Below, in pieces: positions 6,864 through 34,856 of a stretch of 64,000 nucleotides of DNA (position 1 is its first letter; each line of letters opens with the position of its first letter). A program made the position numbers and the translations under genes. The notes below the pieces were generated by a model. The model ran no database searches. It had not been told where the DNA came from and saw only the letters and a list, made by a program, of their open reading frames with translations. This DNA comes from Candidatus Omnitrophota bacterium (GTDB lineage Bacteria; Omnitrophota; Gorgyraeia; Zapsychrales; Zapsychraceae): NCBI GenBank assembly GCA_016212005.1, contig JACRHP010000009.1:6560-70559 (forward strand), read 5' to 3'.

Positions 6864-6907
6864 AAACGCGCAAGCAGAACGTATTGGCTGTACCGAGACA
6901 AAAGATC

Positions 6908-16931: not shown

Positions 16932-16974
16932 CCGGCCGGCGTTCATGGCAGGGCACATCCAATAACCGGTATAT

Positions 16975-17835: not shown

Positions 17836-17905
17836 CCCTTCGACAAGCTTGCCGAAGGGCTCAGGGCGGGTGGTGAGCCTGTCGAACCACTAGCAGGAGA
17901 TAGCC

Positions 17906-19165: not shown

Positions 19166-20241
19166 GGCAGTTTTTTTACAATGTGGTAACGGACCGGGCG
19201 GACAGCATCGGGATAAAAATGCTTCAGGCCATTTTATTGCCGCTGTCGTATGTTTACCGGTCCGGCGTCCAGTTGACGGCCGCCTTGTATCGAAAGGGGA
19301 TCCTAAAACAATCTCATCTGCCCCGGCCGGTCATCAGTGTCGGGAATATTACGGCGGGAGGGACGGGGAAGACCCCTTTGGTCGCCAGGGTCGCCCAAAT
19401 TTGCCAGGGGTTCGGGATGAAGCCGGTCATTTTAACCCGTGGATATATGGGGCGGGGGATAGGAAGTGGCTGTGAGAAAAGCGACGAGGCGGCCATGCTG
19501 GGAAAAATACTGCCGGACGTCCCTGTTTTGCCCGGGGCCGACCGGATCAAAAGTGCCCAGGCATTTCTGGGAGGGGATCAGGCCGATATTTTTATCCTGG
19601 ACGACGGTTTTCAGCAATGGCGCCTGGCCCGGGACATGGACATCGTGGTCATCGACGCCACGGACCCGTGGGGAAACGGCAAAACTCTTCCCCGCGGAAT
19701 TTTGCGGGAACCGCTCGCCGCGCTGCGCAGGGCCGACTGGATCATCCTTACCAAGACAGATTCAAGCCGGGCGAGAACCGCGCACCTCCGCCAGCGTTTC
19801 AAAGAAATTGGATGTACGCAGCCCGTCCTGGAATCTGTCCACCAGCCGGTTTCTGTCGAGGATTTAGATTCGGGAGGAAATTATCCGCCTGAAATATTGG
19901 CCGGCCGCAAAGTTTGCGTTCTATGCGGATTGGGCGCGCCGGAGATCTTTAGTGAGACCTTGACGCGTCTGGGGGCGGAAATTTCCCGCGCATTTAACTT
20001 TACCGATCATCACGTCTATAGTAAAACGGATATTACGTCGATCGCGCAGTATTGCAAAGCGAACCATGTCAGGGCCGTTATTACCACACAAAAAGACGCC
20101 GTTAAACTGACCGGTTGGCGTGAAGAGTTACGCGAAGGCGTGGACGTTCAGCTCTTCGCGCTTAATATCGAACTTGTCCTGGCTAATGGAAAAGAAAAAA
20201 ATGCCTTCGTTCAGCGAATCGCTGATTTTTCACAGCGTTAA
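19162..20241 (+). CDS. lpxK: Tetraacyldisaccharide 4'-kinase
   Basis: VISVGNITAGGTGKTP. Confidence 0.88.
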   Translation: MRQFFYNVVTDRADSIGIKMLQAILLPLSYVYRSGVQLTAALYRKGILKQSHLPRPVISVGNITAGGTGKTPLVARVAQICQGFGMKPVILTRGYMGRGIGSGCEKSDEAAMLGKILPDVPVLPGADRIKSAQAFLGGDQADIFILDDGFQQWRLARDMDIVVIDATDPWGNGKTLPRGILREPLAALRRADWIILTKTDSSRARTAHLRQRFKEIGCTQPVLESVHQPVSVEDLDSGGNYPPEILAGRKVCVLCGLGAPEIFSETLTRLGAEISRAFNFTDHHVYSKTDITSIAQYCKANHVRAVITTQKDAVKLTGWREELREGVDVQLFALNIELVLANGKEKNAFVQRIADFSQR

Positions 20242-22174
20242 CTGGTTGGGTGGTTTTATGCGGTTGCTGCCGCTTCAGGCGGCGCTATGGATCAGCCGTC
20301 TTGTCGGCACGCTGGCCTATTATTTTGATATCCGCCACAAGACAATCGCCTACGCCAATATCAAGGCCGTCTTCGCCGATTCCAGATCTCCCGCTGAAAT
20401 CCGGCGCATGACCAAAGAACTATTTCGGAATTACGCGCAGAATTTTATCGATTTATTCCGCCTGCCGCTGGTAACTCCCCAGAATTTCCAGGACCTGATC
20501 ACCGTTGAAGGTATCGAGAATCTTTCCCTTGGCCTTGGCCAGGGGAAAGGCGCGATCATGCTGGCCATGCACTTCGGCAGCTGGGAACTGGCCAACCTTT
20601 CCTGCGCCATGCTCAAATTGCCTTATAAAGTTATTGTCAAACCGCAGACGCGGTATACCCGTCTGGAAGAGCTTTTAAATTCCTACCGTTCCTGCGGCGG
20701 TTACGTTGTCCTTAACCGGGGGATGGGGACCCGGGACTTCGTGCGGAGCTTGCAGAGCAATGAGGTCATCGGGATGGTGGTCGACCAAGGCGGGCGCGAC
20801 GGGGTCCTCGTACCGTTTTTTGGACGCAACGCTTCTATGTCGGTAGGGGCGATCCGCATGGGGCTTAAATGGGGAGTCCCGATTTGTTTTAGCGTCATCC
20901 ATCGTCAGCCGGGCGGCCGGCACAAAATGATCGTCCATAAACCCCTGGAACTGGTCAACACGGGGCGTACGGAGGAAGACATCGTTGCCAATCTTTCCCA
21001 AATCACGAAGATCATGGAAGATTATATCCGGCGTTATCCCTCGGAGTATATGTGGTTTTATAAAATCTGGAAATATTCCGACCAGACCTCCATCACAATC
21101 TTGAGCGACGAGAAAACAGGACATCTGCGCCAGTCCCAGGCCGTGGCCCGGTTATTGCAAAAAGCCCTGGCCGAACGTGAAATCCGTTCCAGCGTCCAGG
21201 AAGTCCCGGTCCGGTTTAAAGGCGAATTCCACCGGAACCTTTTCGCCGTTTTGAGCCTGTGTTTACCGCCGTTTTTCCATCAAGGGCATCTGGAATATCT
21301 GAAATGGTTTTTAACGGGTGAATCTTACGGCCGGGCAATCCGGGTCAAGTCGGATTTTATTGTCTCCTGCGGTTCATCCGTCGCGGCGGTTAACTATTTT
21401 CTGGCAAAGGACCATGGCGCCAAAAGTGTCGTGGTCCTCAAGCCCGGGATCCTGGGATACAGGAAATTCAACCTGGTGATATTGCCGCGACATGAAATGC
21501 CGCGTCAGGTCCCGGCGGGGCCGCGTTTGGTGGAAACGTTGGGGGCCCCGAACCTGATCACCCCGGAATATCAGCAGGAACAATCGCAGGGACTGCTCAA
21601 GCGATATTCACATTTAAAGAATAACCTGAAGATCAAGATCGGCCTTTTTATCGGCGGCGATTCGAAGGATATCTTTTTAAGCGAACACCTGTTGAAAGTT
21701 TTGGTCCACCAGCTCACCGAGGTGGCGCAGGAGATCAGCGCGGACATCCTGGTGACAACCTCACGGCGTACTCCGGCGGCCGTTGAAGAATTACTGCAAA
21801 AAAGGCTGCGCAAACATCCGCGGTGTCCGCTCCTCGTTATCGCCAATGAAGATGACGTGCCCGAAGCGGCAGGAGGCATGATGGGGTTGTCGGACATCCT
21901 GGTCGTTTCCGGAGACAGCATCTCGATGATCTCGGAAGCGGCCAGTTCCGGGAAGAAGACCATTGTCTTCCTGCCGGAACTGCGCCAGAAAGAGCAGCGG
22001 AAATCGAACAAACATCTGGCATTCATTGAACAGTTAGGGGCGGAAGGTTATCTTTTTGCCAGCAGCATCAAGGACATCGGCCGCGCCGTTTATGATATCG
22101 CCAAGGGCAAGATCCAGACCAAGCCGCTCAACGATAACCTGGTGATACTCGATGCCCTCCGGAAAATTATTTAA
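20201..22174 (+). CDS. Fusion of an LpxL/HtrB-family lipid A acyltransferase (N-terminal) with an ELM1/DUF1022-like domain (C-terminal)
   Basis: N-terminal half shows LpxL-like transmembrane anchor and acyltransferase motifs. The C-terminal roughly 380 aa resemble the Mito_fiss_Elm1 family. The start is uncertain (ATGs at 20186, 20201, 20258) and the first two overlap lpxK. Confidence 0.6.
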   Translation: MPSFSESLIFHSVNWLGGFMRLLPLQAALWISRLVGTLAYYFDIRHKTIAYANIKAVFADSRSPAEIRRMTKELFRNYAQNFIDLFRLPLVTPQNFQDLITVEGIENLSLGLGQGKGAIMLAMHFGSWELANLSCAMLKLPYKVIVKPQTRYTRLEELLNSYRSCGGYVVLNRGMGTRDFVRSLQSNEVIGMVVDQGGRDGVLVPFFGRNASMSVGAIRMGLKWGVPICFSVIHRQPGGRHKMIVHKPLELVNTGRTEEDIVANLSQITKIMEDYIRRYPSEYMWFYKIWKYSDQTSITILSDEKTGHLRQSQAVARLLQKALAEREIRSSVQEVPVRFKGEFHRNLFAVLSLCLPPFFHQGHLEYLKWFLTGESYGRAIRVKSDFIVSCGSSVAAVNYFLAKDHGAKSVVVLKPGILGYRKFNLVILPRHEMPRQVPAGPRLVETLGAPNLITPEYQQEQSQGLLKRYSHLKNNLKIKIGLFIGGDSKDIFLSEHLLKVLVHQLTEVAQEISADILVTTSRRTPAAVEELLQKRLRKHPRCPLLVIANEDDVPEAAGGMMGLSDILVVSGDSISMISEAASSGKKTIVFLPELRQKEQRKSNKHLAFIEQLGAEGYLFASSIKDIGRAVYDIAKGKIQTKPLNDNLVILDALRKII

Positions 22175-22224
22175 AATTTATCGCGTGGAGCCCCACGGGT
22201 TAACACCCGTGGCCCCTCTATTTT
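22162..22224. repeat. 63-bp direct repeat, copy 1, containing a terminator-like hairpin (ccacggg-ttaaca-cccgtgg)
   Basis: Nearly identical to 23469-23531 (2 mismatches). Includes the last codons and stop of the upstream gene. Confidence 0.8.
22193..22224 (+). terminator. Candidate intrinsic terminator (7-bp GC stem followed by ...ctatttt)
   Basis: Hairpin followed by a T-rich tail, seen directly. Confidence 0.4.
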
Positions 22225-22332
22225 CCGGTTCCGCGTTGTTCCGGATGGCTTGAGGGATAGTGATTCGGCGGTGGTTTGTGAGGAACAGATTGTTTGAAAA
22301 ATATATATTTTATGGAGTATAGTTCCTTATAA

Positions 22333-22361
22333 TTGACATATTATATGGAATATGCTAATAT
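22333..22361 (+). promoter_or_regulatory. Near-consensus sigma70 promoter TTGACA-N17-TAATAT placed 7 nt before the ATG at 22368 (leaderless?)
   Basis: Hexamers and spacer length read directly. Confidence 0.5.
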
Positions 22362-22367
22362 TATCCT

Positions 22368-23495
22368 ATGAAAATACCTCGGTTTTATCAGGATTTAACT
22401 CCCTACCTTAAGCCAAACAATGTCCTGGTCATTTATGGGCCGCGGCAGGTCGGCAAGACCACGCTGATTCAGGATTTTCTGGCCACCGTTCCGGGGCGCT
22501 ATAAGCTGGATTCAGGAGATAACATCCGGATACAGACCGTTCTGGGGTCGCAGGATTTTGACGTGATCAAAGAATACGCGCAAGGATATTCTTTGATCGT
22601 TATCGATGAAGCCCAAAGAATTCCCAACGTCGGCCAGGGATTGAAAATTCTGGTGGATCAGCTTCCCGGTATTCAGGTGATCGCGACGGGTTCTTCCTCT
22701 TTTGAACTGGCCGGGCAAGTGGGGGAACCGCTCACCGGGAGAAAAACTACGCTGACATTGTATCCGGTATCGCAGTTGGAATTGCGGGGCCTTTATAACA
22801 CTTATGAATTGAAAAACAACCTGGAGCATTGGCTTGTCTTCGGGGGGTATCCCGAAATCACCGCGGTAGGATCAAAAAGTGAAAAGATCCGCTTGCTGGA
22901 AGAATTAGTGCAATCGTATTTATTCAAGGATATCCTGGAGCTGGAACAGGTCAAGAGTTCCAGGACCCTTATGGACCTGTTACGCCTGTTGGCATTCCAG
23001 GTGGGCAAGGAAGTCTCGTTAAACGAACTGGGACAGCAGGTCGGCGTGGACACCAAGACGGTGGCGCGCTATCTGGACCTCTTTGAAAAGGCGTTTGTCG
23101 TTTACAATCTGCGCGGCTTTAGCCGCAACCTGCGGTCCGAGATCGTGAGGAAAGGCAAGTATTATTTTTATGACAACGGCATCCGCAACGGCGTGATCTC
23201 AAATTTTAACGAGATGGGACTCCGTAACGACGCCGGAGAATTGTGGGAGAATTTCCTGTTTATGGAACGGCTCAAGAAACGGTCTTATCAGAATATATAT
23301 GCCAACAGTTATTTCTGGCGGACGTGGGAACGCCAGGAAATCGATTTGATCGAAGAGCGGGAGGGCAAATTGTTCGCATTTGAATTCAAGTGGGGCAAAG
23401 ACAAAACCAAACTGCCGAAGCAATGGGCCGCGGCCTATCCCGAAGCGTTGTTTGAGGTCATTGACAGAGAAAATTATTTAGAATTTATCGCGTGA
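22368..23495 (+). CDS. AAA+ ATPase with DUF4143 (COG1373-like)
   Basis: Walker A GPRQVGKTT, and Walker B IVIDEAQ. Confidence 0.75.
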   Translation: MKIPRFYQDLTPYLKPNNVLVIYGPRQVGKTTLIQDFLATVPGRYKLDSGDNIRIQTVLGSQDFDVIKEYAQGYSLIVIDEAQRIPNVGQGLKILVDQLPGIQVIATGSSSFELAGQVGEPLTGRKTTLTLYPVSQLELRGLYNTYELKNNLEHWLVFGGYPEITAVGSKSEKIRLLEELVQSYLFKDILELEQVKSSRTLMDLLRLLAFQVGKEVSLNELGQQVGVDTKTVARYLDLFEKAFVVYNLRGFSRNLRSEIVRKGKYYFYDNGIRNGVISNFNEMGLRNDAGELWENFLFMERLKKRSYQNIYANSYFWRTWERQEIDLIEEREGKLFAFEFKWGKDKTKLPKQWAAAYPEALFEVIDRENYLEFIA

Positions 23496-23531
23496 AGCCC
23501 CACGGGTTAACACCCGTGGCCCCTCTATTTT
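23469..23531. repeat. 63-bp direct repeat, copy 2
   Basis: See copy 1. It supplies the last four codons (EFIA*) of the AAA ATPase gene in a different frame. Confidence 0.8.
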
Positions 23532-23644
23532 TAGGACTCCGTCCGTGGGGCGGGATCCTGGCCAGAACGCCTTCATTCACGCCTTTACAGACGTGGCGTT
23601 CTGGCGTCAGGGTAGATTTTTCGGGCCCGGCAAAGATTGCGCGT

Positions 23645-23710
23645 CATTCTTGCCGTCCACGGGACCCACGGCGCCAAGAAAGAGCGGCCGGGTACAACCC
23701 GATCCTGAAT
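23645..23710. repeat. Imperfect direct repeat A (core tgccgtccacgggacccacggcgccaag) upstream of the MNT/HEPN pair
   Basis: About 75-80% identical to 24746-24805. The core is partially palindromic. Confidence 0.55.
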
Positions 23711-23770
23711 TTGACAATCGTGCTGTAATATGTTACAGTAACAACTGTAAATAACGCAGAGCAACAGAAT

Positions 23771-24313
23771 ATGATCAACTTGCGCTCCCAAATCACACAA
23801 AAGGTCCTGGGGTATTTCTACCTCCACGAAGACGCAGAAATGTACATCAATGAAACGGCCCGCCGGCTTGGTCTTGACAGTGGTAATCTCACCAGAAAAT
23901 TCGAGGAGTTGGAAAGCCAGGGGATCCTCAAGAGCCGGTGGAAGGGGGCCCAGCGGTATTATTCGCTTGATAAGGAATTCTCGCTTTATCAGGAATATAA
24001 AAAAATTATCAAAAAAACCGTTGGTTTTGAAGAAATCTTGCGCGCTTCTTTAAAATCACTTGCAGGCATTCAACAAGCTGTTGTCTTCGGCTCTTACGCG
24101 GCTGATAAAATGGATCCCAAAAGCGATATTGATGTATTGGTCATCGGAGATCATGACACGGTGGAACTGCAAAAAGTAATTGCCCGGATCCAGAGATCCG
24201 TTGACCGTGAAATAAATTGTATCACTATGACTGGCAAAGAATACCGGGAAAAACAAAAAAAGGACCCGTTTTTAAGATCCTTAAAAAGTAAACCCCGTCT
24301 TGACCTCTTATGA
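23771..24313 (+). CDS. wHTH-fused minimal nucleotidyltransferase (MNT, Pol-beta superfamily)
   Basis: GSYAADKMDPKSDIDVLVIGD motif with an N-terminal winged-helix region. Confidence 0.8.
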   Translation: MINLRSQITQKVLGYFYLHEDAEMYINETARRLGLDSGNLTRKFEELESQGILKSRWKGAQRYYSLDKEFSLYQEYKKIIKKTVGFEEILRASLKSLAGIQQAVVFGSYAADKMDPKSDIDVLVIGDHDTVELQKVIARIQRSVDREINCITMTGKEYREKQKKDPFLRSLKSKPRLDLL

Positions 24314-24732
24314 CCCGGTTTGAGAAAGAATATTTCCGCCCGTTTTCTTTCAGCGGCAAAGAGATTGACCGTTATTTCCAGAACGCTTTGCGCGATCTTA
24401 AAATTGCCCAGACGGATCCCTACACGGAAGTGCGGTTTACGTATTGTTATCAGGCCTTGATCAAATCCGGCATCGCCTTGATCGCCAAAGTCGGCCAGGT
24501 CAAAGTCAGAAGCGTGGCCGGGCACCATGTCCAGGTATTGACGAAAATGAGCAATTTGTTGAACAACCCGGATATTTTGACCATCGGCAATGCCATGCGC
24601 ATGAAACGTAATCTGGACCTTTACAGCGGCGGCGAATTCATCAGCAAGAAAGAAACCGGCGATTATATCCGTTTTACAAAGCAGGTTATCAATCAAACGG
24701 AGAAAATTATCAAGGCAGGGAAGAAGGAGTAA
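24310..24732 (+). CDS. HEPN domain protein, partner of the upstream MNT
   Basis: ATGA overlap with the MNT gene; 140 aa, helical, with an R..H-type motif. Confidence 0.7.
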   Translation: MTRFEKEYFRPFSFSGKEIDRYFQNALRDLKIAQTDPYTEVRFTYCYQALIKSGIALIAKVGQVKVRSVAGHHVQVLTKMSNLLNNPDILTIGNAMRMKRNLDLYSGGEFISKKETGDYIRFTKQVINQTEKIIKAGKKE

Positions 24733-24745
24733 ACATCGCGCGGTG

Positions 24746-24805
24746 TTTCTGCCATCCACGGGATCCGCAGCGCCAAAAGAGAATGGCTGGATATTATTGC
24801 GGGGG
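24746..24805. repeat. Imperfect direct repeat B (tgccatccacgggatccgcagcgccaaaag)
   Basis: Pairs with 23645-23710. Confidence 0.55.
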
Positions 24806-24914
24806 GAGTAAAGGACGTTGCCGCCGTTAATGAAGGATTGACAGAGGAGAATCATGCCGAGAATATTCGATAACATTGAACAGCCGCTTTTGCCGTCGTT
24901 GAAAGGTTTTTATT

Positions 24915-25133
24915 ATGCCTCCTGAAGCATTCTCCAGAGTTTTGATCGACGAAGCCCTGAAATCCTCCGGCTGGGATCTGGCAAAGAATGCTCATTTCGA
25001 ACTTGCCGGATCGCAAGAGGCTCGATGATATTGTTTTCGACACGATCGGCCTCACCGCCGCCGAACGCAAAGAAGTCTACTGGTCTGTCTGTGAACTCGT
25101 CAAAAACCGCCTCGACCAAGCAGGAAGTGTGTG
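24915..25133 (+). pseudogene. Internally deleted remnant of a restriction enzyme gene (HsdR/Res-like N-terminus joined out of frame to a type IIG-like C-terminal motif)
   Basis: N-terminus reads IDEALKSSGWD. A frameshifted continuation reads LDDIVFDTIGLTAAERKEVYWSV, the typical C-terminal motif of type IIG/MTase enzymes. Confidence 0.4.
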
Positions 25134-25147
25134 AAGCGAGTAATATT

Positions 25148-26083
25148 ATGAAGGAACAGAAACCCAAAAAACGGCACCATTATATACCTGTCTTTTATTT
25201 GAACGGTTTTACGGATAAAAACGGATGTCTATATGTGTACGATAAAGACACTAAGCCGGTGTTTGAATCCTCTCCCGAGGGTATCGCATACGAGAACCAC
25301 TATTTTTCTTTTATGACGCCACATGGCGAAAGGGATTCGGAGACCGTGGAAAATGCTATCATGTTATGGGAGGGAGAATTTGCAAGAATAGTAAAAAAAA
25401 TCCATGATCATGAGGATTTGACGGATGATGATTATATGGTTTTTTCTTTTTTCGTTGCATCTATGATGATAAGAGTTCCCAACATGAGGGATAACATACG
25501 GAAAGCGACCGGCGAGACGATAAAACGTATGAATGTCTTCATGTCGTCCCACAAAGAAAATTTTGGACGAATGATAAAGAAGTATGAAAGCAATACAGGA
25601 AGGCAAATTGGCATGGATGTTGAAGAACTGCGTCAATGGATGAATAATCCGGACAATTATGACATGACCGTTGACAAGGAATATGCTACTGGAATGGCTT
25701 TATGCTTGCTTGAAGATCTTGCGAAGGGGTTTTTAAATATGAAATGGGCTTTTTTAAAGGCAACGGACGACTATAAATATGTGACAGGTGACAATCCGTT
25801 GCGATACATTGACCCGACACATAACCCGCGCTCATTTTACGGAGTAGGGCTCGCCAACGAAAACATAGAAGTTTCCTTGCCCTTATCCAAAGAGATTTGT
25901 GCTTTCGGTTCATGGAAATATAGAGAAGGTCATATACAAGCCAATAGTCAGCATGTAAAACATTTAAATAAAATGACCGTTAGCGCATCGGTAAAGTTTG
26001 TATTCGCCGATACCAAGTCAGAGATTATTGACCAATTTGTAAAAAAGTATAAAGATAGCCATCCTGTAATGGTCGTTGGTTAA
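25148..26083 (+). CDS. DUF4238 family protein
   Basis: HHYIPVFYLNGF N-terminal signature in an AT-rich gene. The track ORF extends upstream, but the ATG at 25148 fits the family N-terminus. Confidence 0.65.
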   Translation: MKEQKPKKRHHYIPVFYLNGFTDKNGCLYVYDKDTKPVFESSPEGIAYENHYFSFMTPHGERDSETVENAIMLWEGEFARIVKKIHDHEDLTDDDYMVFSFFVASMMIRVPNMRDNIRKATGETIKRMNVFMSSHKENFGRMIKKYESNTGRQIGMDVEELRQWMNNPDNYDMTVDKEYATGMALCLLEDLAKGFLNMKWAFLKATDDYKYVTGDNPLRYIDPTHNPRSFYGVGLANENIEVSLPLSKEICAFGSWKYREGHIQANSQHVKHLNKMTVSASVKFVFADTKSEIIDQFVKKYKDSHPVMVVG

Positions 26084-26121
26084 GGTAAAGGCGTAATTCG
26101 GGATACAAATGCAGGATGCAG

Positions 26122-26274
26122 GTGACAGTCACTCCGGCGGGGACAGACATGGCGAGCCTCGTCGCTCGTGTGACCGAAATCCGCGCCATGCAAGCCGACC
26201 AATCCGCCAGCCGCAAGCGTCTGGACGACCTGTTTCAGTCAATGTTACACCGTGCTTTTGAGGGGGAGTTATGA
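26122..26274 (+). pseudogene. hsdS: C-terminal remnant of a type I restriction specificity subunit (HsdS)
   Basis: ...SRKRLDDLFQSMLHRAFEGEL* is the conserved HsdS C-terminal helix, with no upstream target-recognition domain. Confidence 0.55.
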
Positions 26275-26434
26275 CGAAGGAGGAATTAAGGTTGCGTCAC
26301 ACGTCCCCCGACGTGTCCTATAAAAAGGTTATGCAGCGAAAATTTCAAGAGCTTCAGCCGGTGAGTTTAATGGATTTGGGAGTGATTTAGATTGAACCTA
26401 ATGTCTATTTTAAATTAGCCTTGGTGAGGATAAT

Positions 26435-28450
26435 ATGATAAAGGCGTTTGTCGGTCACAGTTTTGACTCGGAAGACGAGTCAATAATTACTGCATTCAAA
26501 AAGATGTTTAATAGCTTAAGAACGAGCATGGCTTTTGAGTGGGAAGATGCTGAAGCTACACAGATTAAACCATTGTCAAAAAAGGTTCCGCAAAAAATGG
26601 CGGATAAGAATTTGTTTATTGGTATTTTTACACGAAAACACATAGAACTTGAACTGAAGCAATTAATTCCGTCCAAGCCTTGGAATAAGAATAAATATGT
26701 TATTAGAAGGGCCGATTGTGCTTATGGAACATCGTACTGGATTACTCAGGAAAGTGGATATGCTATAGCTCAGGGCATGGTAACTCTTTTTTTAATTGAA
26801 AAGGGCGTGAGAGAATTAAAGGGATTGCACGCCGATATGGAACACATCTATTTTGAGCGAGGCAAAGAAAGCGAATGTTTTGTTAAGCTAAACGAAGCTT
26901 TAGGTCAGTTTCTTAGCGAGAGCAAAATCAATAACGGGAAAAAAGGGAGCAATATTCCTCCCAAACAATCAGAAAAAGATATTGCTACGGCGGCGAGCGA
27001 AAATATTGCTGTGCAAGAGGCCACAGAAGCTGATGAAGCGCAAGAAGTAAAAAAGCATAAAGAAAAAAAGGATGATAAGTATTATTTTAGGGAAATGTAT
27101 TTCGCGCTTCTTGAGAAAGAAAATGCAAAATTCGAGCAACTAAAAAATGAGGTTTTTGAGAAATATAAAGCCGACGAAGATGGCACGATAGAGTGGCAAG
27201 CTAAAGTATTATCTCTGGAAAGCCTTTTGACGCAGAAGGATGTTTTAAATGACTTGAAGGAGCTTCAAAAAAAGAAGCCTGAAAATGCATTGATAGCTTA
27301 CTATATTGGCGAAGAATATGAAAAATATAAGAATTATGAACAAGCAATCGACGAATACCTAAAATCTGCAAGACTGGAAAAACAAGTTGGATCTAAATTG
27401 CATAGGGTTAGCCTGGCCGCCCATGCCTATGTAAAAAATGGTCAAAAAAACGAAGCGATAAATATTTTATTAAAAGAATTACACGAGGATTCGCCTGATG
27501 ACGAAAAGCGTTTGATATATGGATATTTAGCTGATATTGCGAAGGCCATGGAGGACAATGAATTATTTACAGTTTTCGCTGAAAAAGCATTGGCGATAAA
27601 TCCGAGTAATAGCTCGTTAAGGTTCAGTCTTGCTTATAAGTATTCCAATATGGACAAAGATGTGTTGGCTTTATATCACTACAATATTTTAGCCGCTAAC
27701 AGCCCAGATTCATCGAATTGTAATAACCTCGGTGTAGCATATGCCAGTTTGGGAATGCCTAGCAAGGCGGTAGAATCATATATCAGGGCAAGTGAACTAG
27801 GCGCGACAATATCAAGAGCTAATCTTGCGCAAAAGCTACTTAACGAAGGATTCATTGATTATGCGAACAATCAGTTAAAAGAGGCTATGAAATCAGAGGA
27901 TTATGAAAAAGATAATGTGGGAAGGGCATTGCTAAGGATAGATTCAATTCGCGAAGAAGAGAACAAAAAAGAAAAAGAGGCATTAGAGGGTATTGCGGGG
28001 GAAAGGCGTTTTAAGCAAGATTATGCAGATGCATATTCAATTGGTTTTATTGTTAGCGAAGCATTAAGCGGTGAATGGAATAGCAAGCATGGCAAAATTG
28101 AAATACATTTAGAATCCGGGAACAATCTATATGGTAAAAAGGAAGAAACGGTCGAGGGAAACAATTTGTATCTGGCTGCGATGTTAGCCGGATCGTCCGT
28201 TGGCACAACACCAGAAAAGCGAATCGTTAAATTTATAAGAACATTCGAAGGCAAAATAATTAAAAACAGGACTTTTGAATATAAACTTAAGATTGAAAGA
28301 CAGCCACCGTATAGCACTCTATTAGCACAGGATCTTACGATAACCGAATTTTCTGGCTACGGGATCATAAGCAAAGAGATGAATTTGATAAAGGTAATGG
28401 AGCTTGACAAGGATAAAAAGCAAACTTTCTTAGAAATGATAAAAACATAA
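26435..28450 (+). CDS. Large TIR-like domain + coiled-coil + TPR-repeat protein (candidate defense effector)
   Basis: N-terminus has FVGHSFDSEDE and SYWITQESGYA motifs (TIR-like S.W...E). The middle has several TPR-like repeats (AYYIGEEYEKYKNYEQAIDEY; LGVAYASLGMPSKAVESY). No Walker A motif is visible. The gene is AT-rich. Confidence 0.55.
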   Translation: MIKAFVGHSFDSEDESIITAFKKMFNSLRTSMAFEWEDAEATQIKPLSKKVPQKMADKNLFIGIFTRKHIELELKQLIPSKPWNKNKYVIRRADCAYGTSYWITQESGYAIAQGMVTLFLIEKGVRELKGLHADMEHIYFERGKESECFVKLNEALGQFLSESKINNGKKGSNIPPKQSEKDIATAASENIAVQEATEADEAQEVKKHKEKKDDKYYFREMYFALLEKENAKFEQLKNEVFEKYKADEDGTIEWQAKVLSLESLLTQKDVLNDLKELQKKKPENALIAYYIGEEYEKYKNYEQAIDEYLKSARLEKQVGSKLHRVSLAAHAYVKNGQKNEAINILLKELHEDSPDDEKRLIYGYLADIAKAMEDNELFTVFAEKALAINPSNSSLRFSLAYKYSNMDKDVLALYHYNILAANSPDSSNCNNLGVAYASLGMPSKAVESYIRASELGATISRANLAQKLLNEGFIDYANNQLKEAMKSEDYEKDNVGRALLRIDSIREEENKKEKEALEGIAGERRFKQDYADAYSIGFIVSEALSGEWNSKHGKIEIHLESGNNLYGKKEETVEGNNLYLAAMLAGSSVGTTPEKRIVKFIRTFEGKIIKNRTFEYKLKIERQPPYSTLLAQDLTITEFSGYGIISKEMNLIKVMELDKDKKQTFLEMIKT

Positions 28451-28574
28451 GCCGGTTCTGATAATAAACGTCAGGTACAAATTTACAAATTTAGGGGACA
28501 GGTAAGGTATGTTGATGGACAAATTCCCAGACACATTCCATGCCGGAAATCAAGGAAATCAACGTGCCAGGCAC

Positions 28575-28650
28575 TTTTGGACACCTGCTTACGAACGTCC
28601 GCGGCGCGGCCGCGATCTTTCTTGACACGCTTTTAGGGGAAGAGCTTGCC
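28575..28650. repeat. 76-bp direct repeat, copy 1, upstream of the first Bro-N gene
   Basis: About 90% identical to 29621-29697. Confidence 0.7.
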
Positions 28651-28651
28651 G

Positions 28652-28720
28652 GGGGGCAGGCCTGCCTGCCCTGTCTGCCCTGACTGCCGTCAGGCAGGCG
28701 ACAGGCAAGCGGCAGGCAGG
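28652..28720. other. Long imperfect GC-rich palindrome (cctgcctgccctgtctgccctgac...gtcaggcagg...caggcagg)
   Basis: Inverted repeat seen directly, immediately upstream of the Bro-N gene. Confidence 0.5.
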
Positions 28721-28771
28721 TTGAAGGCCGCGAAGAGGCCGCAGGGCGAGGGAAAGGAAGAGTTTAGTCTT

Positions 28772-29605
28772 ATGAAACAATCACAATCAATCGCGCTTTT
28801 TCATCAGAACAAGGTCCGCCGCCATTGGGACGAGGGCAGGGAGCTCTGGTATTTTTCGATTGTGGATGTGGTGCAAATATTGACCGGCTCCACGATCCCA
28901 AGACGATATTGGAGCGATCTTAAAACAAAGCTTCAAGCGGAAGGAAGTGAAGTGTACGAGAAAATCGTACAGTTGAAAATGACCGCTCCGGACGGGAAAC
29001 AAAGAGAAACAGACTGTTTATCCACTGAAGATCTGCTCCGCGTCATCCAGTCCATCCCATCCCCCAAAGCCGAGCCTTTTAAGTTGTGGCTGGCGAAAGT
29101 GGGCTATGAGCGCATCGAAGAAACCGAGGACCCGGAGCTCGCGATGGAACGGGCGATGAAAACCTACCTCAAGAAAGGGTATACCAAAGAATGGATCAAC
29201 CAGCGGCTTAAAAGCATTGAAGTGCGCAAGGAATTGACGGATGAGTGGCAGGAACGGGGCATGAAGGAGGGTTTGGAATACGCGATATTGACCGACGAAA
29301 TCACGAAAGCATGGGCTGACAGGAGCGTCAAAGATTATAAGAAGCTCAAAGGCCTGAAGAAGCAAAACCTGCGCGACAATATGACCAACCTTGAGCTGGT
29401 TTTGAATATGCTGGCTGAGGCCTCCACGGCTGAGATTTCCAGGAAGAAACAGCCGAAAGGTTTGCCGGCCAATAAACAGGTTGCGCGTCAGGGCGGCGCG
29501 GCGGCGGGAAAAGCGCGGGCCGAGATCGAAAAACAAACCGGCGAAAGCGTCATCACCGGCGCGCATGCCCGCGCGCTTCCGGTTGAGAAAACAAAGAAAA
29601 ATTAA
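28772..29605 (+). CDS. Bro-N domain protein (phage antirepressor/BRO-like)
   Basis: WYFSIVDVVQIL...LKMTAPDGKQRETDCLSTEDLLRVIQSIPSPKAEPFKLWLAKV matches the Bro-N pattern. The track ORF includes the GC palindrome; the ATG at 28772 is preferred. Confidence 0.7.
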   Translation: MKQSQSIALFHQNKVRRHWDEGRELWYFSIVDVVQILTGSTIPRRYWSDLKTKLQAEGSEVYEKIVQLKMTAPDGKQRETDCLSTEDLLRVIQSIPSPKAEPFKLWLAKVGYERIEETEDPELAMERAMKTYLKKGYTKEWINQRLKSIEVRKELTDEWQERGMKEGLEYAILTDEITKAWADRSVKDYKKLKGLKKQNLRDNMTNLELVLNMLAEASTAEISRKKQPKGLPANKQVARQGGAAAGKARAEIEKQTGESVITGAHARALPVEKTKKN

Positions 29606-29620
29606 CGAAAATTAAAGGCG

Positions 29621-29697
29621 CTTTGGGACACCTGTTCACGAACGTTCGCGGCGCGGCCGCGCTCTTTCCTGACATGCTTTTGGGAGAAGAGCTTGCC
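29621..29697. repeat. 76-bp direct repeat, copy 2
   Basis: See 28575-28650. Confidence 0.7.
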
Positions 29698-29873
29698 AAC
29701 ATGAGAAGAATAGGTCCCCCGGGCGGGGATTGGCAAGCCGCCCTGAAGATCGCCCTATTCCTTCGCGCAAGCGCTGGAAAATTTCTTGACTACCATACAT
29801 ATGTGTTGTACAAAAAATCAATCCCCCAATTCCCCCTTGTTAACCATTTTTAAAAAAGAAAGGGGAAATATCC

Positions 29874-30170
29874 ATGTCCACTGAAACGTACTTAACCAAA
29901 ATTGCAGTTTTCAAAGGAAGAGAGGTCAGGAGGGTTCTTATTGAGGGGAAATGGTGGTTTTCCGTGGTTGATGTTGTTTCCGTATTGACGGACAGTGACA
30001 ATCCGCGCGATTATTGGTACAAGATGAAGATCAGAGAAAAAGACGAGGCGGATGTTCAACTGTCGACAATTTGTCGACAGTTCAAATTGACCGCCCCGGA
30101 TGGCAAGTTGAGAAAGACGAACTGTGCCAACATGAGAAGAATAGGCGCCAGTCACCCGGGCAAGTTTTGA
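29874..30170 (+). CDS. Truncated Bro-N paralog (98 aa)
   Basis: N-terminal two-thirds parallels the upstream Bro-N. Homology ends at a 20-bp repeat (gccaacatgagaagaatagg) that is also present at 29695-29714. Confidence 0.55.
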   Translation: MSTETYLTKIAVFKGREVRRVLIEGKWWFSVVDVVSVLTDSDNPRDYWYKMKIREKDEADVQLSTICRQFKLTAPDGKLRKTNCANMRRIGASHPGKF

Positions 30171-30295
30171 GGCCAAAAGGCGAAAAGAAGGGGCGGCGGT
30201 ATGGGTTTTAAGATATCGGACATTTATTGGACAAATAAATCCGTGACAGGGACTAATTTTTGAAGGCCGCGAAGGCCACATAAGTTTGCAAGCCA

Positions 30296-32398
30296 ATGAA
30301 AATTTTACAAATATTGCCTGAATTAAATGTCGGCGGGGTGGAGACCGGGACGGTCGACCTCGCCGGTTATCTGGCGCGGCAGGGACACCAGTCCATCGTC
30401 GTTTCCAACGGCGGAGAGCTTGTCGCCCGGCTTGAGGCCTCGGGCACGAAGCATTACACGCTGCCGGTGCACAAGAAATCTTTATGGACGATGTTCTGGT
30501 CTATCAAGGCGTTGCACAAGATTATCCTTGAGGAAAACGTCGACGTGGTCCATGCCCGCTCGCGCGTGCCCGCCTGGATCGCGTATTTCGCCTGCCGCAA
30601 GACAAAGGCGGCGCTGGTGACGACCTGCCACGGTTATTACGGCAGCCGGGTCTTCAGCCAGGTCATGGGCTGGCCGAAACTGGTCATCGTCCCCAGTGAA
30701 GTCATCGGCCGCCACATGATCGAGCATTTTCGTGTTTCTCCCAGCGGCATCCGGTATATCCCGCGCAGTGTCGATCTCGAACGATTCCGTGTGCCACGAG
30801 CCGATACGGCAGGCAAGTCCTTTTTTACTGTCGTTATTGTCGGGCGCCTGACGCCGCTCAAAGGGCACACCTTTTTTTTGCGGTCCATGGCGAAGGTCAT
30901 CCGCGCGATGCCCAATATCCGCGTCTGGATTGTCGGCGACGCGCCTGCCGGCAAACAGGCGTATAAAGAAGAGCTGCAGCTCTTGATCAAGAGGCTGGGC
31001 ATCCAGGGGCAAGTCGAGTTCCTGGGCAACCGCCGCGACGTGCCGCAGCTGCTGGCGCAGGCGGACGTGCTTGTCCTTTCAACCATCACCCAGGAGGCTT
31101 TCGGCCGGGTGATCCTCGAGGCCCAGGCCGTGGGCGTGCCGGTCGTGGCGACCAAAGTCGGAGGGGTCGTGGATATTATTGAGGACGGCCGCACCGGCCT
31201 CTTGGTCCCGGCGAAAGATATCGACGCCATGGCCAAGGCTGTGACGCGTGTTCTGAACGATAAAAAAACCGCCGCGCAAATGGCTGTGGCTGCGCGGGAA
31301 AAACTCGAGAGAGAATTCACGCTGGAACAGATGGTGTCCCGGACGATCCGGGTCTACGAGGAACTGATGCAGTCCATCAATATCCTGGTCATCAAGATCA
31401 GTTCGATGGGGGACGTGGTCCTCGTCACGGCGGCGTTAAAAGCGCTGCGCGCCCAATATCCTCACGCGAAAATCTATTGTCTGGTGGGCAAAGATTCCAG
31501 AAAAGTCTTGCAAAACTGCCCCCATCTCGACGGCATCATTGTGGATGACCCCAAGAATAAATATAAAGGGTGGTGGCGGACGTTTCTTCTTTCGCATAAG
31601 CTGCGTAAATACCGTTTTGATAAAATCGTGGATTTTCAGAACAACCGCCGCAGCCATCTTTTGGCCTTTTTGAGTTTCTCCAGGGAAAGTTACGGTTACG
31701 ATAACGGGAAATGGGGTAATCTGCTGACGCATCCTTTGAAAATATACCGCAATGATATCCCCGCCGTTGAACATCAATTTCAGCTGTTGAAGGAAATGGG
31801 CATCGCCATGCCGCCGGACGCCGCCCTGGAGCTGTGGCCGTCGGCCAAAGACCGGCAGTATATCCAGGAGTTGCTGGAATCCGAATGGCTGGGCAACATC
31901 CCGCGCATGGTCGGGATCAACATCGCCGCGTCGGAAAAATGGCAGACGAAAAACTGGCCGGTGGAACATATCGCGCGTTTATGCGATCTGCTGGCGGCCA
32001 GGAACATCCGCGTCCTTGTTACCGGCATGGAAAAGGACAGGCCTGTTGTCCAGCGGCTTATGGAAAACACAAGATCCAAACCGGCTGTTTTTGTCGGGCG
32101 CACGGACATCCTGCAACTGGCCGCCCTGATTGGACGCTGCAGCGTCTATATCACGCCGGATTCGGCGCCGCTTCACGTGGCGGCCGCCATGAAAACACCG
32201 CTAGTCGCCTTCTTCGGCCCGACGGATTCGCGCAGACACCGGCCGCCGGCGCGGCATATGGTTGTCCTCGAAAAGAAACTTGCCTGCGCGCCCTGTTACA
32301 GCCCGCGGTGTCTTGTCATGACTCACGCCTGTATGCGTGAGATAACTCCCGATGAAGTCCTCCAGAAGGTTGAAGAACTGATGGGCGCAAAAGTATGA
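30296..32398 (+). CDS. Bifunctional glycosyltransferase: GT4 domain (N-terminal) fused to a GT9 heptosyltransferase-like domain (C-terminal)
   Basis: N-terminal MKILQILPELNVGGVETGTVDLA...EAFGRVILEAQAVGVPVVAT (GT4). C-terminal INILVIKISSMGDVVLVTAALKAL...APLHVAAAMKTPLVAFFGPTD (GT9). Confidence 0.75.
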   Translation: MKILQILPELNVGGVETGTVDLAGYLARQGHQSIVVSNGGELVARLEASGTKHYTLPVHKKSLWTMFWSIKALHKIILEENVDVVHARSRVPAWIAYFACRKTKAALVTTCHGYYGSRVFSQVMGWPKLVIVPSEVIGRHMIEHFRVSPSGIRYIPRSVDLERFRVPRADTAGKSFFTVVIVGRLTPLKGHTFFLRSMAKVIRAMPNIRVWIVGDAPAGKQAYKEELQLLIKRLGIQGQVEFLGNRRDVPQLLAQADVLVLSTITQEAFGRVILEAQAVGVPVVATKVGGVVDIIEDGRTGLLVPAKDIDAMAKAVTRVLNDKKTAAQMAVAAREKLEREFTLEQMVSRTIRVYEELMQSINILVIKISSMGDVVLVTAALKALRAQYPHAKIYCLVGKDSRKVLQNCPHLDGIIVDDPKNKYKGWWRTFLLSHKLRKYRFDKIVDFQNNRRSHLLAFLSFSRESYGYDNGKWGNLLTHPLKIYRNDIPAVEHQFQLLKEMGIAMPPDAALELWPSAKDRQYIQELLESEWLGNIPRMVGINIAASEKWQTKNWPVEHIARLCDLLAARNIRVLVTGMEKDRPVVQRLMENTRSKPAVFVGRTDILQLAALIGRCSVYITPDSAPLHVAAAMKTPLVAFFGPTDSRRHRPPARHMVVLEKKLACAPCYSPRCLVMTHACMREITPDEVLQKVEELMGAKV

Positions 32399-33486: not shown

Positions 33487-33587
33487 AATGTCCTGTCATT
33501 GTCAATGAAGTAAAAAGGAATTCTTTTTTGGCGTTCCGGCCTGGGTAAAATTTCATGTTGTTAAATTTCATTGACTTATCCCCGCTT

Positions 33588-33629
33588 CTGTTCTATTTTA
33601 TCGAACAGTTGTATTATCCAATAGAACAG
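33588..33629. promoter_or_regulatory. Operator-like inverted repeat (ctgttctatt...aatagaacag, plus an internal gaacag) upstream of the second MNT gene
   Basis: 10-bp perfect inverted repeat seen directly, 12 nt before the start codon of an HTH-containing protein. Confidence 0.4.
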
Positions 33630-33640
33630 GAGATGATCCT

Positions 33641-34267
33641 ATGTTAATCCCGGCCGGAAGGAAAAAAATACTCGAAGTATTCTTAAAAGACCCTTTTAAA
33701 GAGATCCATTTACGGGAACTCTCCCGCCTGTCAAAATCCTCATTGGCTAATGTGGACAACTCAATGCGCTTATTTGTAAAAAACGACATGTTTAAGCGTA
33801 ATGAGATGTCGCATTCCACCTTCTTTAAGCCCAATCTTGAAAATGATGACACCATAAAAATATTCGAACTTTTGGAACTTGAGCGGCGCAAGACATTTTA
33901 CGCGAAGAATAAGAATATCGCCCGCCTGATTAAAAAATACACCGATTCAATTATTGAACTATCCAATAAGCGCATCCAGCTTGTTGTGCTTTTTGGCTCT
34001 GTAGCAAGGGGCGAATGGACAAAGGGAAGCGATATTGACATATTGGCAGTCGTTCCGGACAAGGAAAACGATATCATTGATATATTGAACAAGGCCAAGA
34101 CGGATGTCAGCCCGCTTTTAGAAATAAGGCCGATAAGCACCACAACGAAGAAATTCATTGATGGCTATAAGGCCAAGACTGAGTTTTACGATAATCTCTG
34201 GAAGGATCGCATTGTTTTGTATAACGAATTTCTATTCTGGCAACTTATAAGAGAGGGGGGCAAATAA
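33641..34267 (+). CDS. wHTH-fused minimal nucleotidyltransferase (second MNT)
   Basis: GSVARGEWTKGSDIDILAV motif; AT-rich. Confidence 0.75.
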   Translation: MLIPAGRKKILEVFLKDPFKEIHLRELSRLSKSSLANVDNSMRLFVKNDMFKRNEMSHSTFFKPNLENDDTIKIFELLELERRKTFYAKNKNIARLIKKYTDSIIELSNKRIQLVVLFGSVARGEWTKGSDIDILAVVPDKENDIIDILNKAKTDVSPLLEIRPISTTTKKFIDGYKAKTEFYDNLWKDRIVLYNEFLFWQLIREGGK

Positions 34268-34268
34268 T

Positions 34269-34766
34269 ATGCCCGAAAATTTGGAGAGGATTTTGCTGGG
34301 GTGTTTTCATCCAAAAGAAGGGAGGCCGAATTTACAGAAGGTGCCGGTCAGCACCGAGCGCGCGCAACTGCACATCGACAAGGCGCATAACAACCTGCGC
34401 GCAATGAAGCTGATGTTCGACAATGACCTCCTTGATTGGACGATCATCTGCGGTTATTACGCGATGTATCACGCGGTTTTAGCTTCTTTGTATAAAATAG
34501 GCGTTCGCGCCACAGCGCACTACTGCGCGCTTGCGGCGTTCAAGGAATTCTATGTCAAACGCGGTAAAGTCAAACCGGAGTTTCTTGCCTACATCAAACG
34601 CGCCAAACAGCTTGAGCAGAAATATTCCGAGTCATTGGACAAGGCTCAAGAGAACAGAGTGGTTGAACAATACGGCGTTGAGATTATCACCAGCGATGAC
34701 GCCGAATGGATTATCGAAGATGCAAAAGACTTTGTGCTGAAGATAGAGGAGATTTTAGCGGAGTAG
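34269..34766 (+). CDS. HEPN domain protein (second pair)
   Basis: 1-nt gap after the MNT gene; helical, with a YYAMYHA...RATAH region. Confidence 0.65.
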   Translation: MPENLERILLGCFHPKEGRPNLQKVPVSTERAQLHIDKAHNNLRAMKLMFDNDLLDWTIICGYYAMYHAVLASLYKIGVRATAHYCALAAFKEFYVKRGKVKPEFLAYIKRAKQLEQKYSESLDKAQENRVVEQYGVEIITSDDAEWIIEDAKDFVLKIEEILAE

Positions 34767-34856
34767 ACGCGGATATCGTCGTTAATAAATCTGACGCGCA
34801 ACAGGCGTCTTGTCTTAAGACAGTCTGGATATTCATGTTTGGTTAAAGAATAGACA

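Follow-up and report, generated by a model that had tools for sequence, protein, structure and literature searches.

Defence islands are clusters of unrelated defence and toxin-antitoxin (TA) modules, variable between relatives and compositionally foreign. The PDC candidate families were defined by "guilt-by-embedding" in restriction-modification (R-M), BREX, and DISARM systems (Payne et al., bioRxiv 10.1101/2024.01.29.577857), and the majority of them are still to be validated; one of them, PDC-S01, an ATPase fused to a PD-(D/E)xK nuclease, is the fourth most common prokaryotic defence candidate (PMC12988326). In E. coli, TIR-II, a single-protein anti-phage system that joins a TIR domain to tetratricopeptide repeats (TPR), is experimentally active and widespread (PMC11350192). 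PrrC, in turn, is cited as almost exclusively R-M-embedded. Here we describe a locus that can be compared with these systems, found in 64,000 nucleotides (nt) of an uncultured groundwater Candidatus Omnitrophota (assembly GCA_016212005.1, contig JACRHP010000009.1, positions 6,560 to 70,559 of the forward strand; hereafter, the window). The island is of an ordinary, known kind, namely a mosaic of candidate anti-virus and TA genes, with PDC-S01, PDC-M05, and PDC-S13 present and unrelated modules clustered in variable, compositionally foreign DNA. Unlike known islands of this kind, it is wedged in the otherwise rigid lipid A/lipopolysaccharide (LPS)-core operon of this uncultured phylum, with neither a tRNA gene nor a mobile-element hotspot as its site. 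In our judgement, the parts most worth following are the family of its TIR-like-TPR protein and the traceable scars left by its assembly.

The operon order, as assigned by Pfam, is topA, xerC, waaA, lpxK, lpxL-ELM1, the island, GT4-GT9, GT4, a second insertion, GT9, and GT9. For comparison, 77 related loci, nearly all from Omnitrophota metagenome-assembled genomes (MAGs), were retrieved with the lpxL-ELM1 protein, and 68 of them hold both genes that flank the island (related loci are numbered here with the prefix L). In 67 of these 68, the two genes are separated by only 0-150 bp. In the closest relative, L001, the spacer is 11 bases (ggccctggctt), and alignment with this locus places the inserted DNA at 22175-30295 (8.1 kb). 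The lpxL-ELM1 gene is intact to its stop codon (91% amino acid identity to L001 over residues 1-684), and GT4-GT9 is intact next to the island (92%). No island protein has a tblastn match in any of the 77 loci, and the GC content of the island is 0.450 versus 0.527 for the rest of the window, with the TIR-like-TPR and DUF4238 genes being the lowest-GC stretches of the whole 64 kb. The region is an insertion of foreign cargo at the lpxL-ELM1/GT4-GT9 junction. A preliminary description of this DNA had proposed a variable acquired island with AT-richer modules, and had named as the contrary case a gene set conserved at this locus in distant relatives with uniform GC; since the flanking genes adjoin each other in 67 of 68 relatives and island proteins occur in 0 of 77 loci, the variable-island reading stands. 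The left boundary given there, 22162, moves to 22175, because the first 13 nt belong to lpxL-ELM1.

The sole exception among the 68 loci, L004, carries other cargo at the same junction. At 6427-8163 it has a gene for a 578-amino-acid membrane glycosyltransferase-like TPR protein and no defence genes; we read the product as probably ArnT/PMT-like, with C-terminal TPRs in one relative. Thus, the lpxL/GT junction can take non-defence genes too.

Two hallmarks of a defence island are found, namely presence or absence between relatives at a fixed locus and the clustering of unrelated defence-associated genes, here PDC-S01, PDC-M05A/B, DUF4238-Pers, and PDC-S13 by PADLOC, together with R-M remnants. 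The preliminary description had divided the cargo into five modules: (i) a DUF4143 ATPase, (ii) a pair formed by a nucleotidyltransferase with a winged helix-turn-helix (wHTH-MNT) and a HEPN protein, (iii) R-M pseudogene fragments around a DUF4238 gene, (iv) the TIR-like-TPR gene, and (v) a Bro-N gene with a truncated paralogue. The gene identities are confirmed by Pfam or PADLOC, and four of the five modules fall under candidate families of PADLOC, in agreement with the defence flavour that the description gave to the cargo. All genes of the island are on the + strand.

The best explanation overall, to which we give a probability of roughly 60%, is that the island is a horizontally acquired mosaic which replaced the 11-bp spacer and was built by recombination without a dedicated integrase, its modules being autonomous. 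Its assembly was most likely recombinational rather than site-specific. Pieces would enter by homologous or homology-facilitated recombination beside similar resident modules, "like next to like", combined with microhomology joins, and later deletions would trim the older copies, whose 3' gene ends, terminators, and flanks would persist as diverged direct repeats around the newer cassette; on this view, the two copies of a diverged repeat would represent the alleles of donor and recipient. Natural transformation is an established setting for homologous recombination on one side combined with an illegitimate join on the other. The result would be a string of autonomous co-oriented units, with each module acting on its own. 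The features on which this reading is built are collected in Table 1.

Table 1. Features of the island, its flanks, and the second insertion (window coordinates; GC, fraction of G+C)
Feature	Position	Strand	Evidence or remark
lpxL-ELM1 fusion gene, left core flank	20120..22174	+	Pfam Lip_A_acyltrans + Mito_fiss_Elm1
Repeat D2a	22162..22224	+	last 13 nt of lpxL-ELM1, last 14 nt of lost DUF4143 gene (putative), terminator-like hairpin
Conserved upstream region of DUF4143 cassette	22287..22367	+	77-87% nt identity to L165, L166, L167
AAA_14/DUF4143 ATPase, PD-(D/E)xK-type C-terminus, candidate PDC-S01	22368..23495	+	Pfam 5e-39 and 1.6e-25
Repeat D2b	23469..23531	+	native DUF4143 3' end (last 27 nt), 8-bp terminator-like hairpin, T-rich tail
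Repeat D3a	23632..23694	+	diverged copy of MNT-HEPN 3' flank, upstream of MNT
wHTH-nucleotidyltransferase (MNT, PDC-M05A)	23771..24313	+	Pfam NTP_transf_2 1.4e-10, HTH_20; PADLOC 3.7e-42
HEPN-type partner (PDC-M05B)	24310..24732	+	PADLOC 1.7e-11; Rx4H motif
Repeat D3b	24731..24793	+	native 3' flank of MNT-HEPN module
Three pseudogene fragments	24854..25134	+	positional matches to genes in related loci
DUF4238 protein	25148..26083	+	Pfam DUF4238 2.3e-41; PADLOC DUF4238-Pers 4.9e-17; GC 0.394
HsdS C-terminal fragment, 41 codons	26149..26274	+	aligns to HsdS ends
Last 23 codons of type III-like Res gene	26319..26390	+	codons at 26319-26387
TIR-like-TPR protein, 671 amino acids	26435..28450	+	GC 0.374
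Bro-N block	28451..30239	+	inserted directly after TIR-like-TPR stop codon
Repeat D1a	28569..28650	+	GC hairpin, T-rich tail, TTGACA hexamer
Bro-N/DinD-like protein (PDC-S13)	28772..29605	+	Pfam Bro-N 4.9e-10; PADLOC 3.6e-130; PHROG 15286 2.4e-113
Repeat D1b	29616..29697	+	overlaps first 21-mer copy (29694-29714)
Truncated Bro-N paralogue	29874..30170	+	PADLOC PDC-S13 5e-29 over residues 8-89; no Pfam match
Island right end, native 3' flank of TIR-like-TPR gene	30240..30295	+	holds second 15-mer copy (30260-30274)
GT4-GT9 fusion glycosyltransferase, right core flank	30296..32398	+	Pfam
Second separate insertion, 1.37 kb, between GT4 and first GT9	33487..34856	+	MNT/HEPN pair

Gapped self-comparison returned four repeat pairs at the places where the preliminary description had put them, and one palindrome in the truncated Bro-N gene, with nothing else. 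The pairs are mutually unrelated in sequence, and their cores do not occur again in the window. That description had given every module its own repeats, which is correct for modules i, ii, and v and for the truncated Bro-N piece, but modules iii and iv have none. To judge from their sequences, the repeats look like recombination scars, i.e., leftover gene ends or flanks, and not like integron-type sites.

The pair around the DUF4143 gene, D2 (63 nt, 97% identical, BLAST E 7e-24), has the most detailed history. Of the 13 nt that D2a shares with lpxL-ELM1, 12 positions match the DUF4143 end in a different frame, and L001 has these lpxL codons too, apart from synonymous differences. In L165, a 73-nt remnant of the lpxL-ELM1 3' end stands directly before a 91%-identical DUF4143 cassette, and no D2 copy lies between them. 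We read D2a as the probable scar of a microhomology-mediated deletion that joined lpxL to DUF4143 through the 13-nt microhomology. In the simplest reading, a first DUF4143 cassette would have stood right after lpxL with a second copy downstream, and a deletion between the 13-nt identities would have removed the first.

Regarding the pair around module ii, D3 (63 nt, 73% identical, BLAST E 0.003), D3b is 86% identical to L080 661-714, where it follows the remnant of a window-type HEPN 3' end, and this D3-like flank of L080 sits downstream of a different MNT-HEPN pair. Since D3b is a native flank that is also present in L080, its 73%-identical copy D3a would be the flank of an older, lost module.

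The third pair, D1 (82 nt, 88% identical, BLAST E 2.5e-23), precedes both Bro-N paralogues. Simple tandem duplication was rejected as its origin, because the repeats are 88% identical, yet the two Bro-N coding regions do not detect each other by blastn. Neither D3 nor D1 has a coding signature, as judged by an excess of synonymous changes in any of the six frames. The fourth pair is an exact 21-mer (29694-29714 and 30125-30145; 90% over 31 nt, BLAST E 9e-4) that bounds a 431-bp piece in which a Bro-N gene is represented by just its first 84 codons; for this reason, the repeat brackets a fragment and not a functional cassette. The homology of the truncated Bro-N stops at 30124, and the second 21-mer copy starts at 30125.

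The island also records the order of some events. In L080, TAAATCCGTGACAGGGAtTAATTTTT comes directly behind the TIR-like-TPR stop codon, and the same sequence is found in the window at 30240-30265, so that the intervening 28451-30239, which holds Bro-N and the truncated paralogue, entered precisely behind this stop codon; the alignments thus show the Bro-N block to be nested. The right end of the island is 96% identical to L080 8015-8042, and in its last 56 bases the TIR-like-TPR gene keeps its native 3' flank, which explains the second copy of the motif that the preliminary description had noticed upstream of both Bro-N and the GT gene. This motif is a 15-mer, TTGAAGGCCGCGAAG, which occurs in the window only at 28721 and 30260, with no such repeat expected in 100 shuffles. 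The TIR-like-TPR gene would have come as the last gene of an R-M operon, with the two Bro-N genes inserted later.

Parallels exist in other genomes. L165, a contig of another MAG (GCA_964365515.1), has its lpxL-ELM1 remnant at 3858-3929, next to a MoxR-type gene, and the presence of this remnant beside a DUF4143 cassette shows that host flank travelled with the transferred DNA. The same locus has an 89-nt repeat (5060-5148 and 6553-6641, 98% identical), in which the 69 nt that end DUF4143 are joined to a further 20 nt, and this repeat brackets the next gene, for a SLFN_AlbA_2/HATPase_c_4 protein. In L177, Bro-N lies between hsdM and hsdS with its start overlapping the hsdM stop, and a second copy of the hsdM 3' end (77% identical) follows Bro-N and leads into hsdS. 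A 95%-identical Bro-N in L173 is enclosed by a 48-nt repeat pair. In addition, linker pieces are common to islands of different genomes. Collectively, such scars show how islands can grow without an integrase, with new cassettes placed beside similar residents and older copies trimmed.

Several points weigh against this account of the island. The assembly model is inferred from scars, D3a and D1 are not traced to a specific lost gene, and the repeat divergence, at 73-97%, fits donor and recipient alleles or age alike. The source is a MAG, and PDC-S01, PDC-M05, and PDC-S13 are candidates whose validation is pending (PMC12988326). A further, weakly held possibility is that the promoter-plus-ORF (open reading frame) PDC-S01 units of about 1.2 kb, and similar Bro-N (PDC-S13) units, are self-spreading elements.

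Among the rival explanations, an integron-like, site-specific cassette array survives best, even if we hold it to be unlikely. The repeats would be sites for a recombinase encoded elsewhere, and the units could excise as circles. As in integrons and CALINs, short co-oriented single-gene units, here of 1.05-1.3 kb, are separated by repeats, and repeat-flanked single-gene units occur again in L165, L173, and L177. However, there is no IntI, and the repeat pairs, which vary in length from 21 to 89 nt when the other loci are counted, are unrelated to one another and, by sequence comparison and folding, contain no attC-like imperfect palindromes. In single-strand folding, D3 and D1 are no better than shuffles (z +0.7 to -1.7), and the one notable structure is the 8-bp terminator-like stem of D2; terminator-like hairpins are present in D2 and D1. 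An Rfam scan of 21500-35200 gave two sub-threshold chance matches and no structured RNA at the repeats. Where promoterless cassettes would be expected, three cassettes have promoter-like sites of their own, with consensus matches to TTGACA-17/18-TAnnnT ahead of DUF4143, MNT, and the first pseudogene fragment. One pair encloses a truncated gene, and the gene remnant that makes up D2a stands in another frame. The DUF4143 and Bro-N genes are often found on contigs of 1.2-1.5 kb, a point in favor of the array, but contigs this short would also arise where assemblies break at repeats, and strain variation could explain them as well. Short iterated motifs near the Bro-N junctions of L173 may also be counted in favor of an array. 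They consist of tandem iterations at 2090-2235 and 3265-3300 (gtaatgcggga four times, cgaacgtttaa three times, aaatcaacg three times), on both sides of Bro-N, and resemble protein-binding iterons.

As for a recombinase, no integrase was found within the island by Pfam scan of its genes, in keeping with the preliminary description, and xerC is the only tyrosine recombinase nearby. It was considered as the integrase of the island and rejected: of 60 island-free relatives, 56 have it next to waaA, and it is therefore a housekeeping gene.

An origin as the decayed remnant of one larger mobile element, such as a prophage, an integrative element, or a transposon, is in our view quite improbable. The decay visible in the pseudogene fragments, the single orientation of all genes, and the frequency of Bro-N in prophages (PHROG matches, antirepressor names) agree with it, but Pfam and PHROG scans detected no phage structural, replication, integrase, or transposase remnant. 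Moreover, module GC spans 0.37 to 0.51, single modules are found apart from the others in different surroundings at 82-95% nt identity, and the nested Bro-N block implies several events. Searches of viral contigs gave no match to the D2, I1, and D3 cores, nor to the DUF4143 protein, and for Bro-N only relatives of 51-65%.

Finally, a misjoining of foreign repeat-bounded fragments into an Omnitrophota contig, which is conceivable for a MAG in which direct repeats of 63-82 nt can mislead assemblers and for which the repeats are break points in the Logan assembly of the same run, is very improbable, because both junctions fall exactly at gene boundaries with both flanking genes intact, an independent NCBI MAG contig (88,305 bp) holds the island proteins as exact matches, L080 independently has the D3-like flank, R-M genes, TIR-like-TPR gene, and same 3' flank in order, and L165 independently joins the lpxL 3' end to a DUF4143 cassette.

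Returning to the modules of the recombination-built mosaic, the R-M fragments and the turnover of older systems proposed in the preliminary description are borne out by matches of the HsdR N-terminus, the HsdS C-terminus, and the Res C-terminus by position. The first of the three pseudogene fragments (24854-24925), which has a promoter-like site at 24838, begins MPRIFDNIEQ and matches L165 6675; this N-terminus is common to both loci, and window 24820-24897 corresponds at the nt level to L165 6641-6718. The second (24915-25028) is an HsdR N-terminus that matches by position the HsdR starts of L158 and L111. The third (25015-25134), which we read as a probable methylase-like C-terminus, matches L072 18586-18634 over window 25015-25063. 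The HsdS fragment aligns to the C-terminal ends of HsdS in L081, L082, L111, L122, L158, and others, and the Res remnant has 87% amino acid identity to residues 832-854 of the L080 Res. Window 26319-26434, i.e., 116 nt that continue through the spacer to the start of the TIR-like-TPR gene, is 86% nt identical to L080 5885-6000. The DUF4238 gene (GC 0.39) is nested among these remnants, which have a GC of about 0.50 and derive from at least two R-M systems, with operons of type I and of a type III-like kind represented. On this sequence evidence, and contrary to their separation in the preliminary description, modules iii and iv form a single decayed unit that is linked to R-M and encloses DUF4238; the Res end survives just upstream of the TIR-like-TPR gene.

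The DUF4238 and TIR-like-TPR proteins had been singled out as candidates for an uncharacterised antiphage system. A DUF4238 protein protects E. coli against T7 as a single gene (PMC9122126), so that DUF4238 is not uncharacterised as a defence gene, and the proposal keeps its force for the TIR-like-TPR protein, which no model of PADLOC v2.0.0 matches. A TIR system that includes a DUF4238 domain is known from E. coli. A two-gene system of DUF4238 and TIR was nevertheless rejected, since no DUF4238 gene stands beside a TIR-like-TPR gene in the loci searched (L080-L164), and the adjacency in the window looks incidental.

The TIR-like-TPR protein consists of a TIR/nucleoside-deoxyribosyltransferase-like domain (residues 1-165), a disordered K/E linker, TPRs (214-535), and a beta-rich C-terminal domain (546-670). 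AlphaFold models have a pLDDT of 80.8 for the protein and 89.6 for the alpha/beta N-domain alone, and the predicted structure of the latter has the TIR/flavodoxin-like fold. When the whole protein was searched by fold and by sequence against PDB and BFVD, generic TPR matches dominated the results, and a profile of the N-domain had no match among PDB sequences. Within the family, 12 of 23 N-domains match Pfam TIR families (PF10137 in 9 of 23, best 5.7e-7; TIR_2 in 3, 6.9e-8). The family alignment has F5, H8, S9, F10, D14, S100, W102, Q105, E106, and G108 as invariant positions, with E106 invariant within S100-x-W102-x2-Q105-E106 in 31 sequences. A word search gave 173 homologues, most near full length among the matches listed, and a profile search of 1.84 billion representatives (clusters at 50% identity) gave 1,584 family proteins at E<=1e-30, most of the best 150 being near full length. 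By tblastn, no homologue was found in annotated plasmid or phage collections.

The TIR-like-TPR gene is linked to R-M. Close homologues lie 24-44 nt downstream of a restriction subunit in L080 (89% identity, after a type III-like methylase and Res), L081 (79%, after hsdM, hsdS, fic, and hsdR), and L082 (74%, Ca. Omnitrophus magneticus, after hsdM, hsdS, and hsdR), and R-M remnants precede the gene in L085, L086, and the window. All five closest homologues stand inside an R-M operon or at its end, while in the window only R-M remnants are left. Among 61 family loci with at least 1 kb of flank, 17 have R-M genes within 3 kb of the family gene, usually abutting it; in many loci, the distance to hsdS, hsdR, or hsdM is 9-107 nt. 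The order hsdS, TIR-like-TPR gene, hsdM was scored in eight loci (L111, L112, L118, L122, L137, L139, L156, and L157), and R-M families came first when, in 35 loci, the two ORFs closest to the gene on either side were assigned to Pfam. Thus, like the embedded genes from which the PDC families were defined, homologues of both Bro-N and TIR-like-TPR are embedded in type I R-M operons; unlike those systems, the host R-M operon in the window has decayed to fragments and the TIR-like-TPR protein lacks a PADLOC model.

We predict that the TIR-like-TPR protein is an abortive-infection effector, in which the N-domain would hydrolyse NAD+ or a nucleotide after the TPR and beta-rich domains sense infection. 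Most likely, the N-domain, with its invariant S-x-W-x3-E, would cleave the N-glycosidic bond of NAD+ or of a nucleotide, and engagement of the TPR and beta-domain sensor would trigger it, leading to abortive infection that backs up restriction. The broader proposal, that this new widespread family as such serves as a restriction back-up, whose TPR and beta domains would sense that the restriction complex is lost or inhibited, or that the phage brings an anti-restriction protein, and which would then destroy NAD+ or nucleotides, is tentative, and we consider it more doubtful than probable. If true, it would follow the logic of PrrC with a different effector, encoded last in, or internal to, type I and type III R-M operons.

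Two sets of facts speak against these predictions. The best structural matches of the N-domain are deoxyribosyltransferases and not TIRs, and the domain of the window protein has no Pfam TIR match at E<=0.1, which leaves the substrate uncertain. In addition, R-M genes are missing from the vicinity in 44 of the 61 family loci, a difference from PrrC and RloC that adds to the nature of the effector, TIR/NDT-like and not an ABC-ATPase anticodon nuclease; the trait they share is a position of the gene within type I R-M operons or at their end. Compared by description, E. coli TIR-II is similar in having an N-terminal TIR-superfamily domain, a conserved glutamate, and a TPR fusion in a single gene, whereas the window family has an extra conserved beta-rich C-terminal domain and a recurrent R-M link. 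The expected path from sensing to abortive infection is that of TIR-II and of other TIR effectors (ThsB, TIR-STING/CAP12, Pycsar TIR). A large, conserved, R-M-tied TIR-like-TPR family without a PADLOC model is, in any case, a clonable candidate for a restriction-linked abortive-infection system.

The DUF4143 protein of module i matches PDC-S01 over its full length (PADLOC PDLC04789, 1.8e-146 over residues 6-374) with the AAA_14 + DUF4143 architecture, and it would most likely work as an ATP-driven nuclease. A promoter-like TTGACA-17-TAATAT was found by promoter scan at 22333-22361, ahead of the gene, and the unit formed by about 80 nt of upstream sequence and the ORF recurs at 82-91% nt identity in three unrelated contexts. 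The protein has about 8,000 homologues at E<1e-50, among them one of 95% amino acid identity in a Patescibacteria-assigned MAG; relatives of about 70% were seen in Nitrospirota- and Elusimicrobiota-assigned MAGs.

Bro-N has at least 8,000 homologues, all at E<1e-40, with up to 97% amino acid identity; relatives of 78-83% were seen in MAGs assigned to several other phyla, Planctomycetota and Patescibacteria among them. The near-identical DUF4143 (95%) and Bro-N (97%) relatives would indicate either recent inter-phylum gene flow or the mis-binning of short repeat-bounded contigs, and the sharing of PDC-S01 and Bro-N across phyla is relevant to gene flow in groundwater communities. Upstream of Bro-N, between D1a and the 15-mer, GC-rich GGCAGGC/CCTGCC units form an imperfect palindrome at 28651-28714, and the near-perfect 31-nt palindrome inside the truncated Bro-N coding sequence, at 30055-30085, reads TTCAACTGTCGACAA T TTGTCGACAGTTCAA.

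AMPylation neutralises the toxin RNase in the MntA-HepT (type VII TA) family. Module ii resembles it in having a nucleotidyltransferase with a GS-x10-DxD motif (GSYAADKMDPKSDID), preceded by a promoter-like site at 23711 and followed, with a 4-nt overlap, by a HEPN partner with an Rx4H motif (RSVAGH; motifs read from the translations). This is the arrangement by which type VII TA and PDC-M05 are recognised, i.e., an adjacent nucleotidyltransferase (GSx9-13DxD) and HEPN protein (Rx4-6H). Unlike MntA-HepT, the window MNT has an N-terminal wHTH, its score with the NCBIfam MntA model (32 bits) is below the cutoff of 60, and Pfam HEPN has no match to the partner at 24310-24732. Most likely, the pair works in the MntA-HepT manner, as a putative RNase neutralised by the nucleotidyltransferase.

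The same operon has been entered elsewhere. The second TA insertion, 3 kb downstream of the island, holds genes at 33641-34267 and 34269-34766 (GC 0.428; Pfam NTP_transf_2, HEPN); GT4 and GT9 abut in about 50 relatives, none of which carries this MNT/HEPN pair, and no flanking repeat was found around 33487-34856. At a third junction, GT9a/GT9b, another genome (L072, DOGZ01000023, Omnitrophota UBA10174) has a 2.7-kb insert at 16343-19039 with a small wHTH ORF, a truncated AlbA_2-like start, and, in common with the window island, a methylase-fragment remnant and a 24-nt linker motif; from its ORFs, we read this insert as probably holding an AbiEi/AbiEii-like pair. The window further contains, at 622-1037 and with no relation to the island, a tRNA cluster (Lys-ttt, Leu-tag, and Gly-gcc).

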